From Streptosporangium soli (GTDB taxonomy: Bacteria; Actinomycetota; Actinomycetes; Streptosporangiales; Streptosporangiaceae), in assembly GCA_022213955.1 (NCBI GenBank), contig JAKNTW010000009.1:213580-277579 (forward strand): 64,000 nucleotides of DNA, written 5' to 3'. Positions 2,906-51,730 of this stretch are shown piece by piece. The position numbers were made by a program, and so were the translations under genes. How positions within the stretch are numbered: position 1 is the stretch's first letter; every line of letters starts with the position of its first letter. The notes beneath the pieces were generated by a model. The model ran no database searches. It worked only from the letters and a program-made list of their open reading frames with translations, and was not told where the DNA came from.

Positions 2906-3625
2906 GTGATGGTCAGGCGGCCGGCCGGGCTACCACTCGAACGCGTAGGACGGTCCAGGTTGATCAATCACGTGCGCATGACACGCCTCGATGACGACCT
3001 GTTCGCCGGGCTCGACGTGTCGGCTCCCCACCTGGCCGAGGCCCAGGAGGATGCGTCAGTTCCCGGGCCGGCTGAGGTCCGGCAGGACGCGTCGGCTCCC
3101 GGCCTGGCCGAGGTCCGGCAGCACGGGTCGGCGTCTGGCTCGGCCGAGGCGTGGGAGGACATGGGGGGTATCGGGCGGGTTGAGGTGCGAGCGTCGGATT
3201 CCGGGCCGGCCGAGGTCCGGCAGCACGGGTCGGCGTCTGGCTCGGCCGAGGCGTGGGAGGACGTGGGGGGTATCGAGCGAATTGAGGTGCGAGCGTCGGA
3301 TTCCGGGCCGGCCGGGGTGCGGGAGGGTGGGTTGGTGTCTGGCTCGGCCGGGATGCGGGGTTTCGAGCTGGTTGAGGTGCGAGCGTCGGATTCCGGTGCG
3401 GCCGAGGTGCTGGAGGGTGGGCCGGGGTCCGGCTTGGGCGAGGTCCGGGGGGTGGACGAAGGGCGGGTGTCAGCGTTGGACCTGGTCGAGGTTCAGCAGG
3501 GCGCGGAGGTCCTCGGCCTCGGGGGCGCCGAGCCGGGAGAAGAGGTCGTGGGCGCGCCGGAGACAGTCGTTGCTCCTGTCCGTGCTGCCGAGGCCGGCGA
3601 GCGCGTGGCCGAGGACCGAGAGTGA
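2906..3625 (+). CDS. hypothetical acidic repeat protein (34-aa units VEVRASDSGPAEVRQHGSASGSAEAWEDxGGI)
   Basis: The + frame through the repeat array has higher GC3 than the proline-rich - frame. The last 155 nt run antisense to the SARP 3' end, so the true stop and extent are uncertain. Confidence 0.3.
   Translation: MMVRRPAGLPLERVGRSRLINHVRMTRLDDDLFAGLDVSAPHLAEAQEDASVPGPAEVRQDASAPGLAEVRQHGSASGSAEAWEDMGGIGRVEVRASDSGPAEVRQHGSASGSAEAWEDVGGIERIEVRASDSGPAGVREGGLVSGSAGMRGFELVEVRASDSGAAEVLEGGPGSGLGEVRGVDEGRVSALDLVEVQQGAEVLGLGGAEPGEEVVGAPETVVAPVRAAEAGERVAEDRE
3040..3470. repeat. tandem direct repeat array (~102-bp unit x ~3.5 plus ~36-bp sub-repeats)
   Basis: Near-identical units readable at 3107-3208, 3209-3310 and 3311-3400 (gccgaggtccggcagcacgggtcggcgtctggctcggccgaggcgtgggaggac...gaggtgcgagcgtcggattccgggccg). 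Lies immediately 3' of the SARP gene. Confidence 0.85.
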
Positions 3626-6424
3626 CAGGGCCTCGCCATAGGGGTGGCCGATCTCGCGGCTCACGGTGAGCGCCTGTTCGGCGTGGCGGATCGCGTCCTC
3701 GAAGCGGCCCGCGGCGATGAACGTCTGCGCCAGGCGGCAGCACACCCGTTGCTCCCAGACCCGCTGGTTGCTGGCGCGGAAGAAGGCCAGGCACTCGGCG
3801 TGGTGGTGGACGGCCTCGCTCAGGCGGCCCACCCGGGAGAGCACGATGCCCAGGTGGTAGCGGGCCCGGGCGGTGCCCGCGCCGCTGCCGATCTCCGTGA
3901 AGATCGCCAGTCCCTGCTCGGCGGCGGCGATGGCGTCGTCGGCGTGCCCGAGGCCCAGGTGGTCGCGCACCGAGTAGCTGAGCACCAGCGCCTCACCCGC
4001 CCGGGCGCCCATCTCCCGGTAGACCTTCGACGCCGCGTCGAACCAGGCCAGCGCCTCGTGGTGGCGCCGCCGGCGGCCGGCGACGACGGCCAGCGCGTTC
4101 ATGGTCTCGCCGGACACGATGCGCTCGCCGGTGGCCCCCGCGAGATCGAGCGACGCGCGGAACTCCGTCTCCGCGGCGAGGAGGTCGTCGGCGCCGAACA
4201 GCACCCGGCCCAGGACGTATCTGCTGCGGATCTCGCTCGGGATGTCGCCGATCCGCTGCGCGGCGGCCAGCAGCTCGGCGGTGCGCCGGTCGAACTCGCG
4301 CATGTGCGTGCCCGACTCCAGCAGCGGCTCCATCGCCAGCAGCAGGTCGGCGGCGGGCAGCAGCGGGCCGGTCACCCGCTCCGCCGCCTGGCCGATCGCC
4401 GCGAACAGCGCGTCGGCCTCCACGTCCAGCCACGCGACGGCCTCGTCGGCGGTGGCGAAGACGCGTCCGGTGCCGTTCACGGCCAGGCGGTCGGCGATCA
4501 GGCTGCCCTCGTAGGCCAGCCGGTGCGCCTCCTTCGCCGAGGCGAGGTAGAAGTCGAGCAGCCTGGCCAGCGCCTGCGCCCTGACCTCGGGATGCTCGGC
4601 GTGCTCCGCCTCCCGCCTGGCGAACAGCCGGAGCAGGTCGTGGAAGCGGTAGCGCCCCGGCGTGGGCGCCTCCAGCAGGCTCGCGTCGACCAGCGACTCC
4701 AGGATGTCCTCCGACTCCATCGTGCTCCTGGCGAGCACGGCCGAGGCCGCGGACAACGAGATGCCGGGCCCGCTGGGCAGCGACAACAGCCGGAACGCCC
4801 GCGCCTGGGCGGGATCGAGCTGGTTGTAGCCGAGCGCGAAGGTGGCGTCCACCGCGAGCGTGCCCACCTTCAGCTCGTCCAGCCGCCGCCGCTCGTCGGC
4901 CAGCCGGGGCACCAGCGAGGCGACGGTCCACGCGGGCCGCGCGGCCAGCCGCGCCGCCACGATGCGTACGGCCAGCGGCAGGAATCCGCAGGCGGCGACC
5001 ACGTCCATCGCCGGGGCGCGCTCGGCCGACACCCGCTCGGGCCCGGCGACGGCGGCGAACAGCGACAACGCCTCGTCCGGTTCCATCACGTCCAGGTCGA
5101 TCAGCCGGCCGGAGGGGAGGTCGGCCAGCTTCGTGCGGCTGGTCACGATCGCCGCGCTGCCGGGCGCGCCCGGCAGCAACGGGATCACCTGCGCCGCGTC
5201 GAAGGCGTTGTCGAGCAGCACCAGCATGCGGCGCTCGGCGAGCATGGAACGGTACAACGCCGACCGTTCGGCCACGCCTTCGGGGATGACGTCGGGCGGG
5301 ATGCCGAGAGCGCGCAGGAAGGCGCCGAGGGTGGAGCCGGGATCGGTCCGCTCGTCGCCGTGGCCGCGCAGGTCGGCGTAGAGCTGCCCGTCGGGGTAGA
5401 GATCGCCGGCGGCGTGCGCCACGTGCACGGCGAGCGTGGTCTTGCCGACGCCGCCGATCCCGCAGATGGCCGCGACCGGCACTCCCTCGCCTCCCAGGAT
5501 CGTCCGCAGCCGGTCGACGACCTGGCGGCGGCCGGTGAAGTCGCCCACCGCCGCGGGGAGCTGGGCCGGCCGGGGAAGCTCCTCCTCCTGCTCGGGTTCG
5601 GGCTCCTGCCGTACCGGCTCGGCGGGGACCGGGGTCGCGGCGAGGGCGGGGTCGGCGGCCAGGATGCGCCGGTGCAGGGTGGTCAGCTCGGTCCCCGGGT
5701 CGATGCCCAGCTCCTCGACCAGCGCCTGACGGGTGTCGGCGAAGACGGCGAGGGCGTCGGCCTGCCGTCCGCACCGGTAGTAGGCGAGCATGAGCTGGGC
5801 GCGCAGGCGCTCGCGCAGGGGGTGGTCGGCGGTGAGCGCGATCAGCTCGGAGACGATCTCGTTGTGCCTGCCGAGCCGCAGGTCGAGGTCCATCAGCGAC
5901 TCGACGACGTTCATCCGGCGCTCGGCGAGCCGGTCACGCTGGTGCTCGGCGTACGGCCCGACGGCTCCGGCCAGCGGTTCGCCGCCGCACAGCGCCAGCG
6001 CGTCACGCAGCAGCCGGGCCGCGTCGTACAACCGTTCGGCGCGCCTGGCGGTCTCCGCCCGCGCGATGTCCCGCTCGAACAGCGTCAGGTCGACCGCGTC
6101 CTCGGGCAGCCGCAGCGCGTAGCCCTTGCCGACCGAGGTGAGCAGCTCCGGCCGGGACCGCGGCGAACGGCCCGGCTCCAGTACGGCCCGCAGCCGGGAG
6201 ACGTAGGTGCGCAGCGCACCCAGCGCCCGCGGCGGCGCCTCCTCGCCCCAGATCGCGTCGATCATCTCCGTCGGGGTGACCGCCCTGCCCTCGCGGAGCA
6301 GCAACATCGCCAGGATGGAACGTTGCAGAGGAGTGCCCAGATCGAGTTCCCTGCCGTCCCGCCACGCCTGAACAGGCCCCAGCACGGCGAAGCGCAGGCC
6401 GTCTTCGCTGTCCCGAACAGCCAT
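3470..6424 (-). CDS. AfsR-like SARP family regulator (OmpR-type winged helix + BTAD + NB-ARC ATPase + TPR)
   Basis: ORF 3470..6538 trimmed to ATG at 6424 (MAVRDSEDGLRFAVLGPVQAWRDG...). Walker A GIGGVGKTTLA present. C-terminal TPR-like repeats. Architecture matches AfsR-type large SARPs. Confidence 0.9.
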   Translation of the reverse strand: MAVRDSEDGLRFAVLGPVQAWRDGRELDLGTPLQRSILAMLLLREGRAVTPTEMIDAIWGEEAPPRALGALRTYVSRLRAVLEPGRSPRSRPELLTSVGKGYALRLPEDAVDLTLFERDIARAETARRAERLYDAARLLRDALALCGGEPLAGAVGPYAEHQRDRLAERRMNVVESLMDLDLRLGRHNEIVSELIALTADHPLRERLRAQLMLAYYRCGRQADALAVFADTRQALVEELGIDPGTELTTLHRRILAADPALAATPVPAEPVRQEPEPEQEEELPRPAQLPAAVGDFTGRRQVVDRLRTILGGEGVPVAAICGIGGVGKTTLAVHVAHAAGDLYPDGQLYADLRGHGDERTDPGSTLGAFLRALGIPPDVIPEGVAERSALYRSMLAERRMLVLLDNAFDAAQVIPLLPGAPGSAAIVTSRTKLADLPSGRLIDLDVMEPDEALSLFAAVAGPERVSAERAPAMDVVAACGFLPLAVRIVAARLAARPAWTVASLVPRLADERRRLDELKVGTLAVDATFALGYNQLDPAQARAFRLLSLPSGPGISLSAASAVLARSTMESEDILESLVDASLLEAPTPGRYRFHDLLRLFARREAEHAEHPEVRAQALARLLDFYLASAKEAHRLAYEGSLIADRLAVNGTGRVFATADEAVAWLDVEADALFAAIGQAAERVTGPLLPAADLLLAMEPLLESGTHMREFDRRTAELLAAAQRIGDIPSEIRSRYVLGRVLFGADDLLAAETEFRASLDLAGATGERIVSGETMNALAVVAGRRRRHHEALAWFDAASKVYREMGARAGEALVLSYSVRDHLGLGHADDAIAAAEQGLAIFTEIGSGAGTARARYHLGIVLSRVGRLSEAVHHHAECLAFFRASNQRVWEQRVCCRLAQTFIAAGRFEDAIRHAEQALTVSREIGHPYGEALSLSVLGHALAGLGSTDRSNDCLRRAHDLFSRLGAPEAEDLRALLNLDQVQR

Positions 6425-6775
6425 TCCGGGGTTCTCCGACTCCGAGGAAAGTTTTATGACCAGATGATAGGTCCTTGAACGCTTACGCCAAAGGTAGGAG
6501 GCCGAACGTTGATCGGCTGTTGATCCTCCGTTGAACATGGGGGGACATGCTGAGACACATGAAAGGCGTGGCCCCGAGCCAAACGGGGGCGGCCATGCCT
6601 CCCTGATATTCCGGGGGCTCGCATCAACCGATGCGGGCCCCTTGTCGCGTGCCGTACAGCACGTTTATAGCGGGCTGCAGGCTGCCGTCAACAGTGTGTA
6701 AGCGGTGTGCAGGCGGCAGGGCCTATCAATGAGCCATCGCCCCGGCACTGGGGGAGTTTCCGAAGGAGAACCACG

Positions 6776-12186: not shown

Positions 12187-13152
12187 CTACGAAGCGACAG
12201 TCGTGTGTGCGGGGCCGTAGACGAAGTCGGGATCGATCTGCGCGGCGAGATCCTGGCCGGTGGCCCGGTTGGCCCACGCGTCGGCGTTGCGCAGGTGGAA
12301 CTCCACGGCCTGGTCGCCGAAGCGCGCCCAGTTCTTGGGCCGGTTGTCGAGGATCTTGAGCAGCATGGCCAGGGAGTCGGCGTTGGCCGGCTCCAGGTCG
12401 TCGAGGGCGAACGGCCTGCCCTGCTCCAGCGCCCGCACCGCCGGGCTGTGCTCGAACCAGGTGACCAGGTCGTCGCCGACGTGCCGGCGGAGGAAGGCGA
12501 GATCGTCGGGACCGTGCACCTTGTTGCCGACGACCGCGACCGGCACGCCGTGCTCGGCGGCGTAGTCACGGTACTGCCGGTAGACGCCGACGCCCTGGCG
12601 GGTCGGCTCGGCGACCAGGTAGGTCAGGTCGAAGCGGGTGAACAGCCCGGAGGCGAAGGAGTCGGCCCCCGCGGTCATGTCGACCACGACGTATTCGTCG
12701 GGACCGTCGAGCAGGTGGTTGAGGTAGAGCTCGACCGCGCCGACCTTGGAGTGATAGCAGGCCACACCGAGGTCGTCCTCGTTGAACGGCCCGGTGACCA
12801 TCAGCCAGGCCCCCTCCGGCGTGGTGGTGGCGAACCGGTCGTGGATCGGGTCGTCGCGCTCGCCGAGGTCGAGCAGGTTGGAGCCGCGGCCGGGCGGGGT
12901 CGTCTTGACCATGGCCGCGGCGGAGGTGATGCGCGGATTGTCGCCTCGCAGATATTCCTTGATCTCCGTGAGGTGGGCGCCCATCGGCGGGGGCAGCTCC
13001 GTGTCCTCAACGCCGAGGATCATGCCGAGATGCTGGTTGATGTCGGCGTCGATCGCGACGACGGGCCCGCCCTGGCTGGCCACGTATCTCGCGAACAACG
13101 CGGACAGAGTCGTTTTGCCGCTGCCGCCCTTGCCGACGAACGCTACCCTCAC
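12187..13152 (-). CDS. ParA/MinD/ArsA-type P-loop ATPase
   Basis: Deviant Walker A VAFVGKGGSGKTT near the N-terminus. Probable GTG start at 13152; an upstream ATG at 13182 is also possible. Confidence 0.7.
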   Translation of the reverse strand: MRVAFVGKGGSGKTTLSALFARYVASQGGPVVAIDADINQHLGMILGVEDTELPPPMGAHLTEIKEYLRGDNPRITSAAAMVKTTPPGRGSNLLDLGERDDPIHDRFATTTPEGAWLMVTGPFNEDDLGVACYHSKVGAVELYLNHLLDGPDEYVVVDMTAGADSFASGLFTRFDLTYLVAEPTRQGVGVYRQYRDYAAEHGVPVAVVGNKVHGPDDLAFLRRHVGDDLVTWFEHSPAVRALEQGRPFALDDLEPANADSLAMLLKILDNRPKNWARFGDQAVEFHLRNADAWANRATGQDLAAQIDPDFVYGPAHTTVAS

Positions 13153-13256
13153 GCCTCGATCCAATCTGATTATGAAAACCATTGCAACCCTGGAGGGCTC
13201 ATCATGCCACGGTCGCGAGGCGTTCCGCCGGGGTATGAGCGATCGGGGGGAACAAG

Positions 13257-13571
13257 ATGGCCTGGTTGGTGCTCTTCGTGTCGGGAATCCTGGAGACCGT
13301 CTGGGCCGTGGCCCTGGACAAATCCGAGGCGTTCTCCAAACCGCTGGCCACGACGGTCTTCGTGGTGGCGCTGATCCTGAGCATGATCGGTCTCGGCTGG
13401 GCGCTTCGCGACATTCCGGTCGGTACGGCGTACGCGATCTGGGTGGGCATCGGCGCCATCGGCACGGCAGTCGTCGGCATGGCCTGGCTCGGCGAGTCGG
13501 CCTCCCTGCCGAGGATCGCCTGCCTGCTGCTCGTGGTGGCCGGTGTGGTGGGACTGAAGATCTACCACTGA
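13257..13571 (+). CDS. sugE: SMR family quaternary-ammonium-compound efflux transporter (SugE/EmrE-like)
   Basis: 104 aa, four TM helices, conserved membrane-embedded Glu (ILETVWAV) characteristic of SMR proteins. Confidence 0.85.
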   Translation: MAWLVLFVSGILETVWAVALDKSEAFSKPLATTVFVVALILSMIGLGWALRDIPVGTAYAIWVGIGAIGTAVVGMAWLGESASLPRIACLLLVVAGVVGLKIYH

Positions 13572-13600
13572 CGCGGAGCGCTCGTCCCAGCCGTCAGGGC

Positions 13601-14914
13601 TTAGCAGGTTTCGTCGAGGGAGACGGGGGTGCTCCTGGCCGGGCTAGGTGTGGCGGCCGGCCGGGGGGCGGTCCCGTGGAGCGACTCGGCCGTCTTGCGC
13701 CTGATCAACGCATAGTCGGGGGTGGCCGGGTCGATCAGCGGGGGGACGAACTGGAGGCTCTTGATCTCCGAGTCGCGGACCCGCTGCGACAACTCGATCA
13801 GGCCGGGCAGCAGGCTCTGTGGGATGTCGGTGGACACCGCCTGCCTGGCGGCGCGGGCCAGCCGGTCGAAGCCGCTGAGCAGGGTCGCCGGTCCGGCCTG
13901 CCTCGCGACCGCGTTGAGCAGGCACTTCTGACGGGCCATCCGGACGTAGTCGCTGCTGTCGGTGCGTGACCTGCCGTACCAGAGGGCAGCCTCGCCGGAC
14001 AGCCTCCGGGTGCCCGCCGGGATCAGCCCTTCGCGACGCGAGCCGTACACGATGGGTTCCCTGACCTTCACCGTCACGCCGCCCATGGCGTCGATGATGT
14101 CGGCGAATCCCTTCATGTCGACCATCGCGTAGTAGTGGACGGGCAGGCCGAGGATGCCCGAGACGGTGTCCTTGAGTAGTTTCGGGCCGCGTTTGCCGGT
14201 GGGGGTGTGCGGGACCATCTCGGGGTGGTCCTCGGCGTACTGGAAGATCTCGTTGAGGATGCCGGGGGTCAGGGGAGGGTCGCCCGCGAAGCCGTACGGG
14301 AAGCGTCTCCTGGCGGGGCCGTCGGGCATCGGGACCCGTTCCAGGTTGCGGGGGAGTCCGAGCAGTACGGCTCTGCCGGTGCGGACCTCGATGGAGGCGA
14401 GGGTCACGCTGTCGGTGCGGATCCCTTCGCGGCCGGTGGCGGCGTCGGCGCCCAGCAGCAGGATGTTCACCCTGTCCTTGCCGCTCCACGGGTCGTGCGC
14501 GCGGCCGAACATGCCGGTGATGAGGTCGCCCGAGAGGTAGGCCACCCTGGCCGCGTGGACCGCAGGGACGATGACGAGCAGGCAGAGCGCGGCCGTCAGC
14601 AGACGGGTGACGGCGGCGGGCCGTACCAGGCGGTAGGAACAGATGATCACGGCGGCCCAGGCCAGGCCCAGCACGACCAGGCCCACGGCGAGCCCCGCCA
14701 GCCATCCCGGGCGTACGGCGAGCCCGAGCAGACGGGCGCGGTGGCCGGAGAGCATGACGACGCCGGCGCCCACCAGCGTCGCCTCGACCGCGAGCAGCAG
14801 CAGACCGGTCAGCCGGCGTCCCGTGACGAGATGGGCGAGCCCCCAGATCACCGCCGATCCGAACGTGAGCGCCGCGCTCGCCCCCAAGCCGAACCGGCCA
14901 CCACTCTCCGTCAC
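13601..14914 (-). CDS. LCP family protein (LytR-CpsA-Psr cell-wall glycopolymer transferase)
   Basis: N-terminal TM segments followed by an LCP domain (ILLLGADAATGREGIRTDSVTLASIE...YYAMVDMKGFADIIDAMGGVTV). Confidence 0.8.
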   Translation of the reverse strand: MTESGGRFGLGASAALTFGSAVIWGLAHLVTGRRLTGLLLLAVEATLVGAGVVMLSGHRARLLGLAVRPGWLAGLAVGLVVLGLAWAAVIICSYRLVRPAAVTRLLTAALCLLVIVPAVHAARVAYLSGDLITGMFGRAHDPWSGKDRVNILLLGADAATGREGIRTDSVTLASIEVRTGRAVLLGLPRNLERVPMPDGPARRRFPYGFAGDPPLTPGILNEIFQYAEDHPEMVPHTPTGKRGPKLLKDTVSGILGLPVHYYAMVDMKGFADIIDAMGGVTVKVREPIVYGSRREGLIPAGTRRLSGEAALWYGRSRTDSSDYVRMARQKCLLNAVARQAGPATLLSGFDRLARAARQAVSTDIPQSLLPGLIELSQRVRDSEIKSLQFVPPLIDPATPDYALIRRKTAESLHGTAPRPAATPSPARSTPVSLDETC

Positions 14915-14979
14915 TCACCACAGGTTAGTTACGTTTGCATCCATCCGGTGGCGACGCGCGGCAACCCCCCTGAACTGGG

Positions 14980-15903
14980 TCACCAGGTGGCGGCCCCGGT
15001 GAAGGAGGTGCCAGTCGGGTGATAACGCAGCGTGCTCATCGCCGCGGAGATGTCCAGCGTGCGCTCGACCGCCAGGTGACCGGCCGCGTAGCGGGTCAGG
15101 CGCGGCGGGCGGCTCACGCCGAGCAGCCGGTGAACGGTCTCGGCCATGGCTGCGACGGGGTGGACCAGGCCGGCGGGCAGATAGTACGGCTCGGCGGGCA
15201 CGTTCCGTTCCGCCAGGATCGCGCGCAGGGCGTCGTCCAGCACGACCGGCTCGGCGTCGGCCACGTTGAACACCCCGCGATCGACCGGGCCCGAGGCGGC
15301 CAGCAGGCAGGCGCGCACCAGGTTGTCCACCGAGGTCAGGCTGATCCGCTGGCGGCCGTCGCCCACCGCGAGCAGCCTGCGCCCGCGCACCGCGCCCAGC
15401 ACCCGGGGAAGCAGCGTGGTGTCGCCCTTGCCGTAGACCGCGTGCGGCCGCAGCACCACCGCCCGCCCCGCCACGACCCGCTCCGCCGCCGCCTTCGACG
15501 CCCCGTAGGCGTTGACGTATCTCCTGACCGGCGCCTCCTCCTCCCGCGCCCGGACCGTGGGCCGGAACGGGTCATAGACGCTGGCCGTGCTCACCTGCAC
15601 GAACCGCGCCCCAGGGAACCCGGCGGCCACATTACGCGTACCGGTCACGTTCGCCGCCCAGATCCCGCGCGGCGGCCCCCAGTCGGTGACGCTGCCCGCA
15701 CAGTGGATCACCGCCGCCACCTCGGGCAGCCGGTACGGCGCCGCCCGCGTGATGTCCCATGCCCGATATGGCGCCCCCGCCACGTGCCCGGCCGCCACCT
15801 GCGCCCGCCTGCCGTACGCGCGCACGTCCCACCCCGCGGCCACCGCCGCCCGGCACACCGCCCCGCCCACGAACCCCGAGGCCCCCGTGACCGCCACGAT
15901 CAC
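14980..15903 (-). CDS. NAD-dependent epimerase/dehydratase
   Basis: Rossmann motif IVAVTGASGFVGGAV. GTG start that overlaps the upstream mini-ORF stop (GTGA). Confidence 0.8.
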   Translation of the reverse strand: MIVAVTGASGFVGGAVCRAAVAAGWDVRAYGRRAQVAAGHVAGAPYRAWDITRAAPYRLPEVAAVIHCAGSVTDWGPPRGIWAANVTGTRNVAAGFPGARFVQVSTASVYDPFRPTVRAREEEAPVRRYVNAYGASKAAAERVVAGRAVVLRPHAVYGKGDTTLLPRVLGAVRGRRLLAVGDGRQRISLTSVDNLVRACLLAASGPVDRGVFNVADAEPVVLDDALRAILAERNVPAEPYYLPAGLVHPVAAMAETVHRLLGVSRPPRLTRYAAGHLAVERTLDISAAMSTLRYHPTGTSFTGAATW

Positions 15904-16151
15904 GGCGACACCGCGCTTGGGAGGCGCGATACCGCGCTTGGGAGGGTGGAGCGTCCGGGGTCGGTGGTCGCCCTGCCCTGGAGGGTGGTGCGTCCGGGGT
16001 CGGTGACGGTGGTTGCCCTGGTGTGGAGGGTTGTGCGTCCGGGGGTGGTCGTCGTGTTTTGGAGGGTGGTGCGTTCAGGGTCGGTGACGGTGGTCGCCTC
16101 AGCCTGGAGGGTGAGTTCGGGGAGGGCGCGGTGGCGGTCGGTGGCGGTCAT
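15900..16151 (-). other. junction-repeat mini-ORF (83 aa, Thr-rich 13-aa repeats ATTVTDPGRTTLQ) coupled between acyl-CoA ligase and epimerase
   Basis: ATG overlaps the acyl-CoA ligase stop (ATGA) and its TGA overlaps the epimerase GTG (GTGA). The repeats echo the ligase C-terminus RATVTR. Underlying DNA tandem repeats span 15905-16145. Confidence 0.3.
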
Positions 16152-17644
16152 CGTGTCACCGTCGCGCGGAGGGCGGCGCGGTCGAGTTTGTCGGCGCGGC
16201 CGGCGCGTGGGAAGGCGTCGAGTACGGCGATGCGGTCGGGAAGGGCGCCGGTGTCGACGAGCTCGGGAAGGGCCTTGCGAACGAGAGACTCCTCGAATCC
16301 CGCCTCGGGGACCAGCGCCAGCACGACCTCCTCGTCGCCGGTCGCCTCGTCGGCGAGGCCGATGATCGCCGCCTCCGCGACCCCGGGGAGCGCGGCGATG
16401 GCGGGCTCGTACAGCCCGGGATAGATGTTGACCCCGTCCCGCAGGATCATGTCCTTCTTCCGGCCGAGCAGCACCAGCCGGCCCTTGTCGTCGATCCGCA
16501 CCAGATCCCCGGTCGCGACCTCGTCGTGCGGCGGTTCGCCCAGGTAGCCACGGGCGAGGTGCGGCCCGGAGACGAACAGCTCGCCGTCGCCGGCCAGCCG
16601 TACTCCCACGTCCGGCAGCGGTGTGCCCAGCAGGTCGCCCTCCGGGTTGGCCAGTTTGTCCTCCGCGTCCGCGATCGCGATCGGCAGCGCCTCCGTCATC
16701 GCGTAGACCGAGAGCACCCGCACGTGCGGGCCCGCCGTGATCGCCCTGCGCAGCACGGCGGGCGGTGCGGGAGCCGCGCCCAGCAGCAGGTAGCGCAACG
16801 TGCCGGGCAGTTCGGGGGTCTTCCTCAGCAGGGCGTCCAGCCGGACCGGCACGCAGAAGGTGTGCGTCGCCCGCCGCTCGCCCAGTTCGGCCGTGAACCG
16901 TTCGGCCGCCCCGGGCAACGACCACGTCGCGCCCGCCGTCAACGCCGGCAGACCCAGCATGAGCTGGTCGGTGTGCACCACATCCCCGGCTCCCAGCGGA
17001 AACGCCTCCCCGAACAGCTGCGCTCCCCGAGCCAGCGACCCCCGCGTGTGCACCACCCCTTTGGGCGCCCCCGTGGTCCCCGAGGTGAACACCACCACCG
17101 CCGGGTCATCGGCCGAGCCTCCGACAACCGCCCGATCCCCGACGCCGGAACGGGGAAGAGCGGTGAGCCGGGTGGCGTGTCGGGGCACACCGGGGAGCCA
17201 GGGGCCGGTGTAGAGATGACGGGCGGAGATGGCGGCGAGCCGGGGGAGGACCAGGCCCCTGCGGCGGGCGAGGCGGCGAAGGGGGCCGCTCAACAGGTAC
17301 GCCGGTGATTCGGTGATCACCCAGCGAGGCCGGGCCGCCGCGAGACGCCCGGCGAAGACCTCGGGGGCCAGCCCCGGATCGGCCAGCATGAGCATCCCGC
17401 CCGCAGCCACCGCCCCCAGCGCGAGCACCACCGCGTCCGGCCCCGGTCGCACCGCGAACAACACGGCGTCCCCGGCGGATATCCCGCCGAGCGCGTCCCG
17501 CACGGCCAGGACCCGCCGGCCCAACTCCCGGTAGGTCAGCTCCCGCCCGCGCCCGTCGATGACCGCGACCGCCTCCGGAGTACGGCGAGCAGCCGCGAGT
17601 ACCCCCTCGACGAGGTCAAATGTTTCACGTGAATCATCGTGCAT
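16148..17644 (-). CDS. AMP-dependent acyl-CoA synthetase/ligase
   Basis: 498-aa ORF with AMP-binding motifs (TSGTTGAPKGV, GELFVSGPHLARGY). Start overlaps the P450 3' end by 11 nt. Confidence 0.85.
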   Translation of the reverse strand: MHDDSRETFDLVEGVLAAARRTPEAVAVIDGRGRELTYRELGRRVLAVRDALGGISAGDAVLFAVRPGPDAVVLALGAVAAGGMLMLADPGLAPEVFAGRLAAARPRWVITESPAYLLSGPLRRLARRRGLVLPRLAAISARHLYTGPWLPGVPRHATRLTALPRSGVGDRAVVGGSADDPAVVVFTSGTTGAPKGVVHTRGSLARGAQLFGEAFPLGAGDVVHTDQLMLGLPALTAGATWSLPGAAERFTAELGERRATHTFCVPVRLDALLRKTPELPGTLRYLLLGAAPAPPAVLRRAITAGPHVRVLSVYAMTEALPIAIADAEDKLANPEGDLLGTPLPDVGVRLAGDGELFVSGPHLARGYLGEPPHDEVATGDLVRIDDKGRLVLLGRKKDMILRDGVNIYPGLYEPAIAALPGVAEAAIIGLADEATGDEEVVLALVPEAGFEESLVRKALPELVDTGALPDRIAVLDAFPRAGRADKLDRAALRATVTR

Positions 17645-18764
17645 GGGCTATCCACAGCTGTGCGTACGTGGGAATGAGGACCCGGCGAGCGGCCCGCCGG
17701 GCGACGATCCGGGGCCGGTGCCGCAGGACGACCTCCGCCACCGCCCGGATCTCGGCCTGAGCGAGCGGGTAGCCGATGCAGAAGTGCGGCCCGGCCCCGA
17801 ACCACAGGTGGCGCACCTCGGCAGGATGCTTCCGGGCAGGGTCGAAGGGACCGTAGGCGCGGGCGCAGTTGTGCGTGACGATCACCACCCGATCGCCCGG
17901 CCGGACCTGCACCCGCCCCACCCGGCCGGGTGCGGCGACCGAGCGCAGCATCACCGGCGTCGGCGTGGTGAACCGCATCGCCTCGTCGATGGCCGTGTCC
18001 AGGTCGAATTCGCTCGTCCCGTGGTCGTGCAGGAGCGCGACCAGGCGGGGGACGAAGGTGGCGACGGTCTCCGTGCCGGTGAGGAAGAAGGCTCCGGCGG
18101 CTCCCCGGGCCTCGGCTTCGGACAGGCCGAGGGAGCGCATCCGGCCCATCACGGTGGTCTCGCCGCCCCGGTGGTACGCGGCGGACGCGATGTCGCCGAT
18201 GCGGTCGAGGACCGCGCGGGCGACGGCGACCTGCCGGTCTGCGAGCCGCCGCGAACGCAGCGACACCATCGACACCACCCGCTCACCATCGGCGAACAGC
18301 TCCCTGGCCGCCTTCTCCCCGACCTCCTCCAGCCCGATCAGCCGGCCGATCACCGCCCCTGCCATCAGCCGCATCGAGTCCACCAGATCGACCGTCTCGC
18401 CATCGGCCAGCCGTCGTGAGAGGTCGGCGAGCGGCTCGTTCAGAACATCGCGGACCAGCGGATCAACGGAGGCGGGGGCGAAGAGCGGGGCGAGCTTGCG
18501 CCGCAGCGCGAGGTGGGCCTCGCCTTCCATGTTGAGCAACACGGAGGGGCCGAGGACGGGCGTCCAGAGGTCACCAGGCGAGCCGGGGCCGTCCTTGCGG
18601 AACCGGTCGTCCGTCAGCACCGCCCGCGCCACGGCGGCGTCGTTGACCACCACGCCGAGGCCCGGCACCCGCACCACCGGCCCCAGCCGGGCCAGCAGCC
18701 GCACCAGCGGGTACGCGACCGGGTGCGCGGCCAGGTACAGCCGTGTCTCGTGGTTGGAGATCAT
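17634..18764 (-). CDS. cytochrome P450
   Basis: Heme-ligand loop FGAGPHFCIG. Start assigned to MISNHE at 18764; an in-frame upstream ATG at 18920 lies inside the repeat array. Confidence 0.85.
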   Translation of the reverse strand: MISNHETRLYLAAHPVAYPLVRLLARLGPVVRVPGLGVVVNDAAVARAVLTDDRFRKDGPGSPGDLWTPVLGPSVLLNMEGEAHLALRRKLAPLFAPASVDPLVRDVLNEPLADLSRRLADGETVDLVDSMRLMAGAVIGRLIGLEEVGEKAARELFADGERVVSMVSLRSRRLADRQVAVARAVLDRIGDIASAAYHRGGETTVMGRMRSLGLSEAEARGAAGAFFLTGTETVATFVPRLVALLHDHGTSEFDLDTAIDEAMRFTTPTPVMLRSVAAPGRVGRVQVRPGDRVVIVTHNCARAYGPFDPARKHPAEVRHLWFGAGPHFCIGYPLAQAEIRAVAEVVLRHRPRIVARRAARRVLIPTYAQLWIAHAR

Positions 18765-18835
18765 CGCACCGCCGCCCCGGGCCAGGGCGGCAGCCGCTCG
18801 GCCGGGTACGGCTGTGCCTCGTGGTCCGCGATCAT
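18761..18835 (-). other. mini-ORF (24 aa) MIADHEAQPYPAERLPPWPGAAVR (repeat copy 3)
   Basis: ATGA overlap with the previous mini-ORF stop. Its own TGA overlaps the P450 ATG at 18764. Confidence 0.3.
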
Positions 18836-18999
18836 CGCACCGCCCTGGGCCGGGGCGGCAGCCGTACGGCCGGGTACGTGGCCGGGTGCGGCTGTGTCTC
18901 GTGGTCCGCGACCATTGCAACCGCCGCCCTGGGCCGGGCCGGTAGCCGTATGGCCGGGTACGTGATCGGGTGCGGCTGTGTCTCGTGGTTCGCGATCAT
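18832..18999 (-). other. mini-ORF (55 aa) MIANHETQPHPITYPAIRLPARPRAAVAMVADHETQPHPATYPAVRLPPRPRAVR (fused repeat copies 1+2)
   Basis: ATG overlaps the GT2 stop (ATGA). Its TGA overlaps the next mini-ORF ATG. Matches the tail of ORF 18832..19044. Confidence 0.3.
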
Positions 19000-19727
19000 C
19001 GCACGTCGATGACGTCGGGGCGGTAGTGGTGGTCGGCGTACCACGCGAGGGTGCCGACCAGGCCATAGGCGCGCAGCCGGCGCACGGAGCCGAAGACGAC
19101 GACGTCCCGCCGGGTGGCGTAGGCGGGGGTGAGCCGGCGGACGGCGTTGACCAGCGCGCGGTCCTCGTGCAGCTCCTCGATCGCGGTCCGGGGAAAGCCG
19201 CCCGCGCGCTCGTACAGGGAGGTGGTGATCGCCATGGTCGCACCGGGCATCATGACGTACGGCCCGCGATAGGCGGGATCGCGGTTGCCCGGCCGGAACC
19301 GGCCGAACAGCGCGGCCACCTCCACGACGAAGGGGATCAGCCGCCGCTCCCAGAACTTCAGCGGGAACTCGTCGGTCCGGGGCCGCAGTTGCCCGCCGAC
19401 CATCTCCAGCCCGTCGGCGAACCCCCGCCGGAGGTTGCGCACCCAGTCGTGGCGCGGCAGGCAGTCGGCGTCGGTCCTGGCCAGGTGGGTGGCCCCGGCC
19501 GCGATGGCGTGCCGCATGCCGGTGTCGGCAGCCGCGCCGGTGCCCTTGCGCGGCTCCCCGACCACCCGGACGCCGTGCCGCCGGGCGATGTCCGCCGTGC
19601 CGTCGGTGCTGTCGTTGTCCACCACCAGCAGCGTGAAGTCCTGGTCATCCTGTGCGGCGAGTGCGCGCAGCGTGCCCTCGATCCCGGCCGCCTCGTTGTA
19701 GGCGGGGACGATCACCCAGAGGTCCAT
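18996..19727 (-). CDS. family 2 glycosyltransferase
   Basis: ORF 18996..20120 trimmed to MDLWVIVPAYNEAAGIEGTLRAL...LLVVDNDSTDGT (GT-A fold, DxD). Its ATG overlaps the KAS III stop. Confidence 0.8.
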   Translation of the reverse strand: MDLWVIVPAYNEAAGIEGTLRALAAQDDQDFTLLVVDNDSTDGTADIARRHGVRVVGEPRKGTGAAADTGMRHAIAAGATHLARTDADCLPRHDWVRNLRRGFADGLEMVGGQLRPRTDEFPLKFWERRLIPFVVEVAALFGRFRPGNRDPAYRGPYVMMPGATMAITTSLYERAGGFPRTAIEELHEDRALVNAVRRLTPAYATRRDVVVFGSVRRLRAYGLVGTLAWYADHHYRPDVIDVR

Positions 19728-20686
19728 CACATCTCCGCCAGCATGACGCCCATGCTGATCCCGCCGCCGAGCCCGAGCATCGCGACCCGGTCGCCGGGCG
19801 ACCAGCCGCCGAGCGAGAGTTGCAGGGGCAGTGTGGCCGAGGCGCAGTTCCCGTGGTCGGGCAGGGTGACCACGAGCCGGTCGTCGGGGAGGTCGAGCAC
19901 TCCGGTCAGGAAGCGCAGGTACGGCATGGCCACCTGGTGGACGGCGACGACGGCGAAGTCGTCCCAGCCCAGGCCGGTGTGTTTGAGGGCGTTGAGGAAC
20001 AGGTCGGGGCCGACGAGTTCGAAGGCGGCCTTCATCCGGCGGCCGTCGCCCTTGAAGTAGGAGTACTCGGGGTCGCGGGGGTGGGCGGAGCCGCCGCCGG
20101 GGAGGGTGCCGACGCCCCACGCCGTACTATCTGCCGAAAAATCGCGGTAAAACACTCCGCGGCGGGCGTCCGCCGTCAGCAGCACCGCCGCCCCCGCGTC
20201 CGACAACGTGTAGCCCGCGAACGATTCGACGAACTGCGCCCGGTCGCTGACCTGCCAGCGGACCGCACGGGAGGGCATCTCGCCCGAGCACACCAGCACC
20301 CGGCGGTGCCCCCCGGTGCGGATCAGCGCCTCGGCCACCTGAATGCCGTTGAGCACGCTGTTGCACGCGTTCTTCACGTCGAACACCGGGCACGACAGCC
20401 CGAGCTTGGCCGACACGATGTGCGCGGTCGCGGGCTCGACCATGTCCTGCGAGGCCGAGGCGAAGATCAGCAGGTCGATCCCGTCGAGGTCCAGTTTCCT
20501 GGCCGCCGAGACGGCCAGGTCGGAGGCCTGCTGATCGTCGTCCGCCACGTGTCGCCACTGGATCCCGGTCATCCGCTCGACGATTCCCGCAGGCGGAACG
20601 TATCCCCGGATCCCCTTCTCCACCTGCGCACTGCTGAGCGTACGGCCAGGCAGAAACGTAGCGACGCCCGAAATGCGGGCCTTCAT
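19727..20686 (-). CDS. 3-oxoacyl-ACP synthase III (FabH-like) family protein
   Basis: Catalytic Cys in VKNACNSVLNG. His/Asn region HQVAMP...DHGNCASATLPL. 319 aa. Confidence 0.85.
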   Translation of the reverse strand: MKARISGVATFLPGRTLSSAQVEKGIRGYVPPAGIVERMTGIQWRHVADDDQQASDLAVSAARKLDLDGIDLLIFASASQDMVEPATAHIVSAKLGLSCPVFDVKNACNSVLNGIQVAEALIRTGGHRRVLVCSGEMPSRAVRWQVSDRAQFVESFAGYTLSDAGAAVLLTADARRGVFYRDFSADSTAWGVGTLPGGGSAHPRDPEYSYFKGDGRRMKAAFELVGPDLFLNALKHTGLGWDDFAVVAVHQVAMPYLRFLTGVLDLPDDRLVVTLPDHGNCASATLPLQLSLGGWSPGDRVAMLGLGGGISMGVMLAEM

Positions 20687-35389: not shown

Positions 35390-37423
35390 ATGGCGCCGTT
35401 GCGAAGCTATGTCTCTGGCTCCTGGCACACTCCCGCGGACGGCGGCGAATCGCTGCTCGACGCGGTCACCGGCGAGGAGGTCGCGCGGATCTCCACCGGC
35501 GGCGTCGACTTCGCCGCCGCGCTCGACCACGGCCGCAGGACCGGCGGGCCCGCACTGCGCGAGCTCACCTTCCACCAGCGGGCCGCCCTGCTGAAGGCGC
35601 TGGCCTCGCACCTTCGCGAGCACCGCGAGGAGCTCTACCAACTCTCGCTGCGCACCGGGGCGACCCTCGGCGACGCCCGGTTCGACGTCGACGGCGGCCT
35701 CGGCGTGCTGTTCTCCTACGCGAGCAAAGGCCGCCGCGAACTGCCGAACGACACCGTCCTCCTCGACGGCGAGGTGGAGCGGCTCGGCAAGGGCGGTTCC
35801 TTCGTCGCCCAGCACCTGTGCACGCCGCTGCGGGGCGTCGCCGTGCAGATCAACGCCTTCAACTTCCCCGTCTGGGGGCCGCTGGAGAAGTTCGCGCCCG
35901 CGTTCCTCGCCGGGGTGCCCTCGCTGGTCAAACCGGCCCGCCAGACCGCCTATCTCACCGCCCGGCTGGTGGAGCTGATCGTGGACAGCGGGCTGCTCCC
36001 CGAAGGGGCCCTGCAACTCGTGTGCACCGGTCCGGGAGACCTCCTCGACCATCTGACCGAGCAGGACCTCGTCTCCTTCACCGGTTCCGCGGCGACCGCG
36101 GCCAGGCTGCGCGCCCACCCCGCCGTGGTGGCCCGCTCGGTCCGGTTCAACGCCGAGGCCGACTCGCTGAACTGCTCGATCCTCGGCCCGGACGCCCTGG
36201 CCGGCAGCCCCGAGTTCGAGCTCTACGTCAAGCAGCTCGTGACGGAGATGACCGTCAAGGCGGGCCAGAAGTGCACCGCGATCAGGCGCGCGCTGGTCCC
36301 CGCCGCCCTGCTCGACGACGTGGCCCTGGCCGTGGCCGACCGGCTCGCCAAGGTGACGATCGGCGACCCCGCCGACCCCGACGTCCGGATGGGCGCGCTC
36401 GCCAGCCTCGCCCAGCGCGAGGAGGTCCGCCGCTCCGTCGCCGCGCTGCGCCGCGCCGGCGGCGTCGTGTACGGCGACCCCGACCGGGTCGAGGTGACCG
36501 GAGCCGACCCCGTGCGCGGCGCGTTCATCTCTCCCGTGCTGCTCCGCGTCGATGACCCGGGCCGCGTCGAACCGCACGAGGTGGAGGCGTTCGGGCCGGT
36601 CAGCACACTGATCCCGTACGACACGGCGGAGCAGGCGATCGCGCTGGCGGCGCGCGGGCAGGGCAGTCTGGTGGGCTCGGTGGTGACCGGCGACCCGAAG
36701 TTCGCCCGCGAGGTGGTGCTGGGCGTCGCGCCGTGGCACGGGCGGCTGCTGGTGCTCGACGCCGAGGCGGCGGCCGAGTCGACCGGGCACGGTTCGCCGC
36801 TCCCCGCGCTGGTGCACGGTGGCCCCGGCCGGGCCGGCGGCGGCGAGGAACTCGGCGGGATCCGCGGGGTCCTGCACCACATGCGGCGCACCGCCGTACA
36901 GGGGAGTCCGGCGATGCTCGCGTCGGTGACCGGGCGGTGGGTGCCGGGTGCGCCCCGCGCGGTCACCGTGACGCACCCGTTCCGCATGCACCTGGAGGAA
37001 CTGCGGCCGGGCGACACGGTCATCGCCGGTCCCCGGCCGGTCACCCTGGCCGACATCGACCACTTCGCCGACTTCACCGGCGACACCTTCTACGCCCACA
37101 TGGACGAGGAGGCGGCCAGGGCCAACCCGTTCTTCGACGGGCGGGTGGCGCACGGCTACCTGGTGGTGTCACTGGCGGCGGGCATGTTCGTGGACCCCGA
37201 CCCCGGCCCCGTGCTGGCCAACTACGGCCTGGAGAACCTCCGCTTCCTCACCCCCGTCTACCCGGGCGACGAACTGACCGTCACGCTCACCGCCAAGCAC
37301 ATCGACCCGCGCGAGGGCGCGCCGTACGGAGAGGTCCGCTGGGACACCGACGTCACCAAGCAGGACGGCTCCTCGGTCGCGAAGTACGACGTCCTCACCC
37401 TCGTCGCGAAACTGACCCCCTGA
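35390..37423 (+). CDS. paaZ: bifunctional aldehyde dehydrogenase / MaoC-like enoyl-CoA hydratase (PaaZ-type)
   Basis: N-terminal ALDH domain (GQKCTAIRRALVP, catalytic Cys) fused to a C-terminal hot-dog hydratase domain. 677 aa. Confidence 0.85.
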   Translation: MAPLRSYVSGSWHTPADGGESLLDAVTGEEVARISTGGVDFAAALDHGRRTGGPALRELTFHQRAALLKALASHLREHREELYQLSLRTGATLGDARFDVDGGLGVLFSYASKGRRELPNDTVLLDGEVERLGKGGSFVAQHLCTPLRGVAVQINAFNFPVWGPLEKFAPAFLAGVPSLVKPARQTAYLTARLVELIVDSGLLPEGALQLVCTGPGDLLDHLTEQDLVSFTGSAATAARLRAHPAVVARSVRFNAEADSLNCSILGPDALAGSPEFELYVKQLVTEMTVKAGQKCTAIRRALVPAALLDDVALAVADRLAKVTIGDPADPDVRMGALASLAQREEVRRSVAALRRAGGVVYGDPDRVEVTGADPVRGAFISPVLLRVDDPGRVEPHEVEAFGPVSTLIPYDTAEQAIALAARGQGSLVGSVVTGDPKFAREVVLGVAPWHGRLLVLDAEAAAESTGHGSPLPALVHGGPGRAGGGEELGGIRGVLHHMRRTAVQGSPAMLASVTGRWVPGAPRAVTVTHPFRMHLEELRPGDTVIAGPRPVTLADIDHFADFTGDTFYAHMDEEAARANPFFDGRVAHGYLVVSLAAGMFVDPDPGPVLANYGLENLRFLTPVYPGDELTVTLTAKHIDPREGAPYGEVRWDTDVTKQDGSSVAKYDVLTLVAKLTP

Positions 37424-37765
37424 CCACGCCCGCGCTCGGGCGGCTTGCCATACCCGCCGCTTGTTGCGTGCCGTACCTGCCCGTACGGCAAGCCACCCCG
37501 GCGCCCCGCGCCGCCCGTGGTGCGGTCCGTCGGGTCACGCCGCTCCAGCAGCGGTGGCGAGCCGCCGTCACGGCGTGCCTTGACGTGGGTTCTTCGGTAC
37601 GTCCGAAGGGCTTGAACCTGCCGCCACGAGGGGTCGGGTGTCCGGGGCCGGGGTGTGGTGTGGGCCCCGGCCGGGCCGGTGGTGTCGGCCCGGCCGGGGT
37701 GTTCGGTGGCGGCCGGTGATGGTGTCGGGGAACGTCAGGGGGCGGTCACGGGGCTCAGGGGGCGG

Positions 37766-40492: not shown

Positions 40493-40884
40493 CAGCGCGG
40501 GCAGCCGCCGGCCGCGGGTACGGCTCCGCGGTCCGGGGCCGCGCGTGGGCCCGCTGTGATCTTCGTCGGTCGCTGATCGCAATTCGGCTCCCTCTTTCGA
40601 ATGAGTCGCAGGTCTGGCCGATGTCAGGTCGACGGTGGGGCAGCGCTGCGATGCCGGACAACGAATCGCGAATCATCCGTACAAGTCCGGACACGACATC
40701 CGGGCCTTTCCGGCCTTCCGGGCGCTCCTGGCCTGTAACTATTCGTGGTCTGTCGACGACGTACAGGTGTGCCGGCCTGTCGTCGCCCCCGCCTCGCCCT
40801 GAGCCGGTGCCCCACGACACCCGGGCGGGGCGCGTCCCCGCGTGACCTCCACCCGCCGGCCCGGACGCCCTGACAGGAACTCAT

Positions 40885-50646: not shown

Positions 50647-51656
50647 GATTCGGCCTTGGAGTGCCGACGGGGACCGAAGGATTGATGTACCCGGTCCCCT
50701 ACGCCGACATCGGCCAGGCCGTACGGCTGGCGGTCGAGGCGGAGCGGCTGGGCTTCGACTCGGTGTGGGCCAACGATCACGTGTCGACCCAGGCGTACGT
50801 GCGGGAGGAGTTCGAGACTCCGCCGCGCTTCTACGACCCGTTCGGTTATCTCAGCTATGTCGCGGCGATCACCAGCAGGATCCGGCTGGCCACGGCGATC
50901 ATGGTGCTGCCGTTCCGCAACCCGGTGGTGGCCGCCAAGCAGGCCGCCACGCTCGACCAGCTCTCCGGCGGCCGGGCCGTGCTCGGGGTGGGCATCGGCG
51001 CCTACCGCGAGGAGTACGAGGCGATGAACCCCGGGCGTCCGCTGCACCGGGGCGAGCACGCGGCGGAGGCCATCCAGGCGTTGCAGGCGCTCTTCACCCG
51101 GCGGCGCGCGAGTTTCCACGGACGCTGGGTCGACTTCCACGACGTGGAGTCGTACCCCAAGCCGATGCAGCCGACGTTGCCGATCCTGTCGGGCGGCAAC
51201 GCGCCGGGGTCGCGCACCCGGGCCGCGCTGTACGCGGACGGCTGGCTGCCCGCCTGCCTCACCCCCGGGGAGGTGGCCGACGGCATCGCCGCGATCGGCG
51301 ACCGGGCCACCGCCGCGCGCGGCGGCCTGCCCCCGGGATTCGAGGTTGCTTTGCAGGTGGCCGTGTGCGTCGCGCCCACCATGGAAGAGGCGTGGCGCAG
51401 GTTCCGGGCCTCGCAGATCCACAACCACCTCGTCTCGCTGTCCGGCTCGACGCTGAAGGACCAGGGTGTGGAGGATCTGGCCCGCCGCAACCTCATCGGC
51501 ACCCCGGAGAGCGTGGCCGAACAGGTGGCGGCCTACCGGGCGGCCGGCGTCGACACCATGGCCGGGCTGCTGTTCGCGGCCAACACGGTGGAGGAGACGG
51601 TCGACGCGATGGCCGAGTTCAGCGAGACGATCATTGGCAGGGAGACGATCGGATGA
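50643..51656 (+). CDS. LLM-class F420/flavin-dependent oxidoreductase
   Basis: ATGA overlap with the permease stop. LLM TIM-barrel signature (WANDHVS, GGRAVLGVGIG). Confidence 0.85.
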   Translation: MRFGLGVPTGTEGLMYPVPYADIGQAVRLAVEAERLGFDSVWANDHVSTQAYVREEFETPPRFYDPFGYLSYVAAITSRIRLATAIMVLPFRNPVVAAKQAATLDQLSGGRAVLGVGIGAYREEYEAMNPGRPLHRGEHAAEAIQALQALFTRRRASFHGRWVDFHDVESYPKPMQPTLPILSGGNAPGSRTRAALYADGWLPACLTPGEVADGIAAIGDRATAARGGLPPGFEVALQVAVCVAPTMEEAWRRFRASQIHNHLVSLSGSTLKDQGVEDLARRNLIGTPESVAEQVAAYRAAGVDTMAGLLFAANTVEETVDAMAEFSETIIGRETIG

Positions 51657-51730
51657 CAGCGGGTCTGCGGGGTCCGGCCGGGTGGCGGCTGGGCGGCGAG
51701 ACGATCAGCGACGGGGAGACGATCGGATGA
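51653..51730 (+). other. junction-duplication mini-ORF (25 aa) MTAGLRGPAGWRLGGETISDGETIG
   Basis: ATG overlaps the LLM stop and its TGA overlaps the M24 ATG. Its C-terminus ETIG copies the LLM C-terminus (gagacgatcggatgac duplicated). Confidence 0.25.

Follow-up and report, generated by a model that had tools for sequence, protein, structure and literature searches.

What question is raised by a chain of very short open reading frames (ORFs), each overlapping its neighbours by the stop and start codons, that lies between a GT2 glycosyltransferase gene and a cytochrome P450 gene in Streptosporangium soli? The ORFs could be genes with a product, parts of a mobile repeat, or remnants of a neighbouring gene. 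The locus is part of a 64-kb window (the whole stretch of DNA that was analysed, 64,000 nt), and all of its features are on the minus strand at the window positions given below. The 235 nt between GT2 and P450 are very probably three tandem copies of the junction and the P450 5' end, which are specific to this lineage, were produced through microhomology and are now decaying. It is also quite likely that the duplications have been tolerated because neither gene is damaged and termination-reinitiation coupling is probably maintained, and that the peptides themselves have no function.

18996..19730, minus strand: GT2 glycosyltransferase gene (Pfam PF00535, E=4e-22)
18832..18999, minus strand: ORF1, 55 aa, units U1 and U2 read in the P450 frame, MIANHETQPHPITYPAIRLPARPRAAVAMVADHETQPHPATYPAVRLPPRPRAVR
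18761..18835, minus strand: ORF2, 24 aa, unit U3, MIADHEAQPYPAERLPPWPGAAVR
17634..18764, minus strand: cytochrome P450 gene, 376 aa, PF00067, N-terminus MISNHETRLYLAAHPVAYP...

The GT2 protein ends in HYRPDVIDVR, a tail that is conserved among orthologs and is encoded here with GTGCGATGATC. The GT2 stop codon (TGA, 18998-18996) overlaps the ATG of ORF1 at 18999. ORF1 ends with a TGA at 18834-18832, embedded in GCGATGATC, which contains the start of ORF2; it thus shares an ATGA with the GT2 stop at its 5' end and with the ORF2 start at its 3' end. ORF2 runs from the ATG at 18835 to the TGA at 18763-18761, and its terminal ATGA opens the P450 gene. The three ATGA overlaps (18999-18996, 18835-18832 and 18764-18761) have a spacing of -4 between neighbouring stop and start codons. 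The chain from GT2 through a 55-aa and a 24-aa ORF to P450 had been proposed in an earlier reading of the sequence (the original prediction), and it is confirmed at the same positions. A protein of Streptosporangium sp. KLBMP 9127 has the same sequence as this P450 (100% identity).

The net insert of 235 nt also puts GT2 and P450 in one frame, with the GT2 TGA (18996-18998, minus strand) as the sole in-frame stop between them. Read-through of this codon would yield a GT2-P450 fusion. The shared frame is probably a coincidence in GC-rich DNA.

Repeat units and their template

The region divides into three repeat units and a fourth copy, which is the 5' end of the P450 gene with its junction.

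18921..19004, minus strand: U1, 84 nt, the GT2/ORF1 ATGA junction and a decayed copy of the P450 5' end
18841..18920, minus strand: U2, 80 nt (3n-1), with a degenerate 5' junction TTGCAATGG and an intact ATGA at its 3' end
18770..18840, minus strand: U3, 71 nt (3n-1), with an extra 12-nt deletion relative to U1 and U2
18675..18769, minus strand: U4, the template, 95 nt (3n-1), 5 nt before ATGA and about the first 32 P450 codons, bounded by the GTGCG microhomology

Tandem Repeats Finder reports a period of 84 with 2.5 copies (87% matches, score 304) and a period of 68 with 2.2 copies over 18728-19003. The 28-nt core of the unit has three matches in the window, where none is expected (100 shuffles). 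The 3' part of U1 is identical to P450 codons 14-31 at 38 of 52 positions, and all of the 127,478 other gapless placements in the window score lower (maximum 35, mean 16). In a codon-aware alignment the P450 reads MISNHET-RLYLAAHPVAYPLVRLLARLGPVVR and U1 reads MIANHET-QP----HPITYPAIRLPARPRAAVA; U2 and U3 resemble U1, with four more codons missing from U3. The three units are 74-76% identical to the template, with a 12-nt gap, and 83-91% identical to one another. The 3' half of the units is weaker in its match but still clearly homologous to P450.

The direction of copying is indicated by the P450 family. The N-terminus M(N)HETRLYLAAHPxAYPLxRLLARLGPVVRVPGLGVVVND opens all 120 of the P450 homologs listed, which come from Streptosporangium, Nonomuraea, Sphaerisporangium, Planobispora, Planomonospora, Actinomadura and other genera. 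Since it is common to all of them, this N-terminus is taken to be ancestral and constrained. On these alignments, U1 to U3 are diverged copies of the P450 5' end and the P450 is the template.

Tandem copies of the P450 N-terminus had been described in the original prediction, and they are borne out by the repeat search, the matches to the unit core and the placement comparison. Alignment of the four units, which it had proposed as a check, gives the identities above, but several details change. The units measure 84, 80 and 71 nt instead of 78-84 bp, and the template covers about 32 codons (95 nt) instead of about 26, with a 12-nt deletion carried by the copies. It had also held that every copy keeps the 4-nt overlap, but the U1/U2 junction TTGCAATGG has lost its TGA and gained 1 nt. 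This 1-nt insertion and the TGA-to-TGG change at the 3' end of U1 join it in frame to U2, and for this reason ORF1 covers two units.

Orthologous loci

A total of 80 orthologous loci were fetched (designated by L numbers), and GT2 lies directly upstream of P450 in 71 of them. A single 4-nt GT2/P450 overlap is present in 26 of the 71, mostly in Streptosporangium species (...CGGTGAACCACGAG; ...GACGTCCGGTGAACCACGAGACC). The unit signature is found in none of the 80 loci, and none of them shares the 243 nt that separate the GT2 stop from the HET codons in the window locus. The repeat insert would therefore be a derived, lineage-specific state, and the comparison, another check proposed earlier, favours neutral duplication. 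A scan of a metagenome collection for the unit gave no match, and a scan of a genome collection for closer relatives returned only orthologs at most 82% identical. A look-up of contigs by the exact protein gave no record, and none of these scans yielded a close relative of KLBMP 9127. The ORF1 peptide belongs to no Pfam family. Nothing among 5.8 billion protein clusters matches it at E<=10; the peptide itself is missing there too.

The GT2/P450 junction is a recurrent site of small duplications in the orthologous loci. Duplications at this junction were recorded in L018 (CCGGTGAGCGCCCGGTGAACC) and in L061, L062, L067 and L077. The GT2 tail in L068-L070 reads VVDIRxxDxR before the stop, and L049 has three CACGAGACCCGG-like copies (self-similarity z=4.9). 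The locus of Thermopolyspora sp. NPDC052614 (L001, 5561-6004) has a 125-nt (3n-1) duplication of the junction and the P450 5' end inside a 437-nt spacer. A 122-aa ORF bridges the GT2 GTGA and the P450 ATGA there and is overlapped at both ends. In the decayed copy (VTTGIGQPRRPAPPAPQRAQVAAHPLLRLPSRYVA) the RLLAR motif has become RLPSR, once more with Leu replaced by Pro. Since the unit contains an N-terminal extension specific to L001, the Thermopolyspora event is taken as independent.

Many orthologs from Sphaerisporangium, Planobispora and Planomonospora (L019-L052) retain the ATGA. Their P450s are extended in frame at the N-terminus by 10-35 aa of variable, low-complexity sequence with no recognisable kinship to the P450 5' end. 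These extensions may be older in-frame junction insertions.

Origin of the mini-ORFs

The presence of intact mini-ORFs does not by itself require selection. When a segment of length P is duplicated across an ATGA overlap, the upstream ATG would read the copied N-terminus of the downstream gene in its own frame and then the tail of the upstream gene. If P is 3n-1, this tail would be read in the frame of the upstream gene and remain open until its TGA, which itself overlaps the next ATG. A 3n-1 duplication over an NTGA overlap would therefore provide a start codon, an open frame and overlaps at both ends by construction. A length of 3n would result in an in-frame N-terminal extension, and 3n+1 would be the sole length class that breaks the chain. 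The inferred proto-units (95 and 83 nt), U2 (80 nt) and U3 (71 nt) are all 3n-1, and U1 became 3n through its 1-nt insertion.

Decay of such a chain was simulated with neutral substitutions in three 83-nt units. The chain from GT2 to P450 was unbroken in 48%, 31% and 16% of cases at 5%, 8% and 12% divergence, respectively. About ten critical sites are not protected by GT2 or P450; one of them has changed, which is near expectation by our own estimate. The original prediction had found the perfect preservation of start codons and coupling noteworthy. One overlap has in fact been lost, and the 3n-1 construction together with the 16-48% neutral survival removes the surprise.

The differences among U1 to U3 occur mostly at codon position 1, and non-synonymous codon differences outnumber synonymous ones (18 vs 4). 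The P450 differs from its orthologs mainly at position 3 (0.13-0.16, 0.10-0.12 and 0.32-0.42 of positions 1, 2 and 3). The substitutions between the copies look unconstrained and show no selection on the peptide. Many of the changes are CTG-to-CCG (Leu to Pro), which would be expected in a 71% GC genome once the constraint on the second position is lifted. The Leu-to-Pro changes also created Pro-Pro motifs only a few codons ahead of the stop/start overlaps, LPPRPR in ORF1 and LPPWPG in ORF2 (18770-18860, minus strand). Pro-Pro motifs can stall ribosomes without EF-P.

A short direct repeat is present at the inferred breakpoints, and the copies are head-to-tail and homologous to the ends of the adjacent genes.

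19000..19004, minus strand: GTGCG microhomology at the GT2 3' end, before ATGA (read from the sequence)
18670..18674, minus strand: second GTGCG, at about P450 codons 31-32 (V-R; read from the sequence)

Both GTGCG have the same codon phase (GTG CGx), and the inner one lies 95 nt (3x32-1) downstream of the copy at the P450-proximal junction. The GTGCG at 18670-18674 would be the distal breakpoint of the first duplication. The ancestral GT2/P450 junction would have been a single NTGA overlap. A 95-nt (3n-1) segment would first have been duplicated between the phase-matched GTGCG microhomologies, and the extra copy would then have shed 12 nt to give an 83-nt unit. Re-duplication of this unit would have produced three copies, which may then have diverged through substitutions, many of them Leu-to-Pro T-to-C changes, and small indels (+1, -3, -12).

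Probable translational coupling

Persistence of the insert may depend on how the P450 is translated. Termination-reinitiation coupling reportedly requires an overlap or a very short distance (title of Huber et al. 2023, cited in PMC12548453). No Shine-Dalgarno sequence is evident before the starts of ORF1, ORF2 or P450. Orthologs with a non-overlapping GT2/P450 junction (L056, L078, L080) have AAGGGAGG before the ATG; no similar motif precedes the ATG at the overlapping ortholog junctions or in the window units. Because the overlaps occur without a Shine-Dalgarno sequence, translation of the P450 probably depends on ribosomes that terminate upstream. The mini-ORFs would pass ribosomes from GT2 to P450 in three hops, and this relay would make the insert tolerable, perhaps with a lower yield of P450.

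The locus resembles termination-reinitiation coupling at NTGA overlaps (Huber et al. 2019 and 2023, cited in PMC12548453), in that three of the four window junctions are ATGA and, as at the ancestral junction, no Shine-Dalgarno sequence is evident. The known cases couple two real genes, whereas the intermediates here appear to be decayed gene fragments and two extra hops would be needed. Short delivery ORFs and synthetic bicistronic designs (PMC12548453) are also alike, since the sole role of a short upstream ORF is to hand the ribosome to a downstream start. In those systems a single ORF, designed or conserved, usually has a ribosome-binding site of its own, whereas the ORFs of the window would be a by-product of duplication.

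Other junctions in the window

The window has four more junctions with mini-ORFs overlapped at both ends, in unrelated operons.

16151-15904, minus strand: AMP-ligase to OleD-like reductase, 83-aa mini-ORF, internally repetitive
51653-51730, plus strand: luciferase-like monooxygenase to M24 peptidase, 25-aa mini-ORF, 74-nt unit (3n-1)
61215-61358, plus strand: MnhD-like to MnhE of an mrp antiporter operon, 47-aa mini-ORF, 140-nt spacing
61856-61894, plus strand: MnhE to MnhF of the mrp antiporter operon, 11-aa mini-ORF, 35-nt unit

The 83-aa ORF (MTATDRHRALPELTLQAEATTVTDPERTTLQ...LPSAVSRLPSAVSP and a stop) fills a 244-nt gap, starting in the ligase ATGA and ending in the reductase GTGA, and has internal repeats with periods of 81, 45 and 21. 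In the orthologous loci the AMP-ligase/reductase junction is a 4-nt overlap in 26 cases and is expanded in 41, often with visible junction repeats. The 25-aa ORF (MTAGLRGPAGWRLGGETISDGETIG and a stop; duplication at 51622-51772) joins the N-terminus encoded by the downstream gene to the tail encoded by the upstream gene and has an ATGA on either side. The MnhD-like/MnhE junction (61214-61360) has copies of GTGACGGCGGTGCTGCCGTGAG 140 nt apart, and the 35-nt unit at MnhE/MnhF (61822-61893) contains the ribosome-binding site GGAGAGAGGGAGG. The repeat units of the five window junctions show no similarity to one another. As far as their sequences tell, junction duplication is a general process and not a sequence family, and it is unrelated to P450 chemistry.

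The original prediction had counted six or more similar junctions in the window. Four are verified and the number of six does not stand; two further repeat arrays sit in convergent intergenic regions. The first (3014-3480) has large tandem arrays with periods of 36, 102 and 90 and up to 90% matches, immediately past the stop codon of a minus-strand gene that encodes 1022 aa (3470-6538). The second (37646-37776) has 20-23-nt tandem repeats (GGCCGGGGTGT..., TCAGGGGGCGGTCACGGGGC) between the convergent genes at 35390-37423 (plus strand) and 37766-40582 (minus strand).

Alternative explanations

Several observations weigh against neutral decay as the whole explanation. Of the four indels that the inferred history includes, three have lengths divisible by 3, and the +1 insertion coincides with the loss of a stop codon; such frame-friendly indels could hint at selection for an unbroken chain. 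The copies are also old, at about 25% divergence from the template, and the bacterial deletion bias might be expected to have purged useless DNA by now. Among 12 automatically detected NTGA duplications, nine are 3n-1 (p ~0.004 by our own binomial estimate). Of the 24 distinct insert lengths at the GT2/P450 junction, 22 belong to classes that preserve coupling (p=0.005, uncorrected for phylogeny), although net spacer length modulo 3 is ambiguous for multi-hop relays and the window locus itself nets to class 1. Given this excess of length classes, pure neutrality may be too strong a claim. Finally, the 281-nt repeat region (18740-19020, minus strand) folds at -140.9 kcal/mol (z=-3.28 vs shuffles). 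In this fold, arms of the GCCGCCC/GGGCGGC type from different units pair with each other, and U1 differs from U2 and U3 by an apparent compensatory G-C to C-G change in that stem.

Alternatively, the chain may have arisen by duplication but have been kept by selection, because it preserves and at the same time attenuates the coupling. Such a relay would tune the P450:GT2 ratio, possibly through stalling at the Pro-Pro motifs (LPPRP, LPPWP) near the 3' ends of the mini-ORFs. The excess of 3n-1 periods and of coupling-preserving lengths, the frame-preserving indels with a +1 compensated by stop loss, and the retention of the copies long enough for about 25% divergence are consistent with it. Divergence from the template is also lower in the first nine codons of the units (4-6 of 27 sites) than in the remainder (12-18 of 45-57 sites). 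However, the neutral simulation alone gives 16-48% intact relays, the bias in length could be produced mutationally by phase-matched microhomology, and the length counts are phylogenetically non-independent. The excess is not seen at the AMP-ligase/reductase junction, where 26 of 35 insert lengths are coupling-preserving (not significant). It was also not reproduced in a count of junction repeats by period modulo 3 based on Tandem Repeats Finder; that count mixed in-frame terminal coding repeats with junction duplications, missed the study locus and is not relied on. Most orthologs also function with a single junction. Selection for the relay is unlikely.

An insertion of a mobile repeat at the P450 start codon, similar to the mycobacterial interspersed repetitive units (MIRU), is another candidate, in place of local duplication. 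PMC12548453 and PMC3184786, from which the MIRU and variable number tandem repeats (VNTR) of Supply et al. 1997 are taken here, describe tandem units of 40-100 bp between co-transcribed actinobacterial genes, ORFs that overlap the stop and start codons of the flanking genes at -4 spacing, and flanking tetranucleotide direct repeats. The argument made there for MIRU is likewise that coupling of their ORFs to the next gene, at a spacing of -4, would let the insert persist "with minimal impact on expression". The window units are alike in size (84, 80 and 71 nt) and in their overlaps, apart from the degenerate U1/U2 junction. In contrast to MIRU, which these sources present as a dispersed family of about 40-50 loci that is regarded as mobile and occurs in Mycobacterium, the units of this Streptosporangium locus are local copies. 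Their homology to the neighbouring P450 5' end covers their full length, no further site in the 64-kb window has the unit, and the units of the five junctions are mutually dissimilar. A dispersed or mobile element was rejected because the unit is confined to the study locus within the window and the units of the five junctions are unrelated. MIRU appear to be the closest known analogue, but the units do not look like a dispersed family within the window, and an inserted MIRU-like element is very unlikely.

The strong regional fold also raises a structured RNA or riboswitch as a candidate. Rfam gives no match at E<=1 in 17500-20000, and the hairpins of single units just upstream of each ATGA are no better than shuffles (z -0.4 to -1.6). 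The candidate was rejected on these two results, and the regional score probably reflects pairing between repeated GC-rich arms.

The original prediction had also considered that the mini-ORFs encode precursors of a P450-crosslinked ribosomally synthesised and post-translationally modified peptide (RiPP), with the P450 forming His/Tyr/Trp crosslinks. The RiPP cores of biarylitide, cittilin and tryptorubin have aromatic or His residues at positions i and i+2. The window resembles these pairs in having very short ORFs, containing His, Tyr and Trp, directly upstream of a co-directional P450, and the top NCBIfam match of the P450 is the RiPP P450 ApyO. However, this match reaches 59.7 bits where the cutoff is 525 and amounts to generic P450 similarity, and in the PDB the best matches are hydroxylases of macrolides and small molecules (E ~1e-12). 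ORF1 and ORF2 contain no [WYH]-x-[WYH] motif, and their His, Tyr and Trp residues are at least 4 residues apart. The peptides are copied from the N-terminus of the P450 itself, are absent from all 80 orthologous loci and differ mostly by non-synonymous substitutions, and ORF1 has no match in the protein database. Antiporter and peptidase junctions have the identical architecture. The P450 is part of a conserved FabH-like/GT2/P450/AMP-ligase/OleD-like operon, in which no precursor ORF is found across about 70 genomes. RiPP precursors were rejected because the ORFs are not conserved, lack the aromatic-x-aromatic motif and precede a P450 that is orthologous to an enzyme of a precursor-free operon; this role is extremely improbable. 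Neutral duplication of the junction, which had been the preferred reading of the original prediction, is supported by the conserved P450 N-terminus, the single junctions of orthologs, the lack of peptide homologs, the unconstrained substitutions and the same architecture at unrelated junctions.

Spurious expansion of a short repeat during assembly is scarcely credible, because although tandem repeats are prone to mis-assembly, these copies differ by 9-26% and by indels and are not identical repeats that could be collapsed or expanded, the P450 protein is 100% identical to a public record, and analogous structures occur in independent assemblies of other genera.

Operon context

The operon (12187-20686, minus strand) encodes a FabH-like KASIII, GT2, P450, an AMP-dependent ligase, a NAD-dependent reductase and an LCP transferase. 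Its junctions are chained by overlaps. The KASIII stop coincides with the GT2 start through GTGATG (GAGATGTGATGG), and the P450 and ligase genes overlap at 17644-17634. The best NCBIfam matches of the reductase are OleD-type 2-alkyl-3-oxoalkanoate reductases at about 116-120 bits, far short of the cutoff, which is 580. The synteny is conserved across Streptosporangiaceae and Thermomonosporaceae. The operon looks like a lipid (Ole/beta-lactone-like) pathway, unlike a RiPP cluster, and no characterised product was identified.

Implications

Junction duplication is a common kind of mutation in these bacteria and a probably near-neutral one, and the study locus is a clear multi-copy example of this known kind, locally derived unlike MIRU. 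A duplication that spans a 4-nt stop/start overlap produces ORFs that are overlapped at both ends from the outset, and many genera show repeated events of this kind at the same operon junctions. Short ORFs that precede a P450 and are rich in His, Tyr and Trp can be debris of the 5' end of the P450 itself, and a check of their conservation is needed before they are mined as RiPP precursors.

A broader proposal is that junction-spanning tandem duplication is a regular evolutionary route in Streptosporangiaceae by which overlapping, translationally coupled genes gain small de novo ORFs, extended N-termini and spacers between cistrons, that selection favours the 3n-1 and 3n lengths because these relay the coupling and do not break it, that these duplications are the raw material of MIRU-like elements, and that the Pro-rich relay ORFs throttle P450 translation here. 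Taken as a whole this proposal is doubtful. If the bias in length classes survives a genome-wide, phylogeny-aware test, it would be evidence for a constraint of translational coupling on which junction mutations persist, and it would suggest a local origin for MIRU-like repeats.

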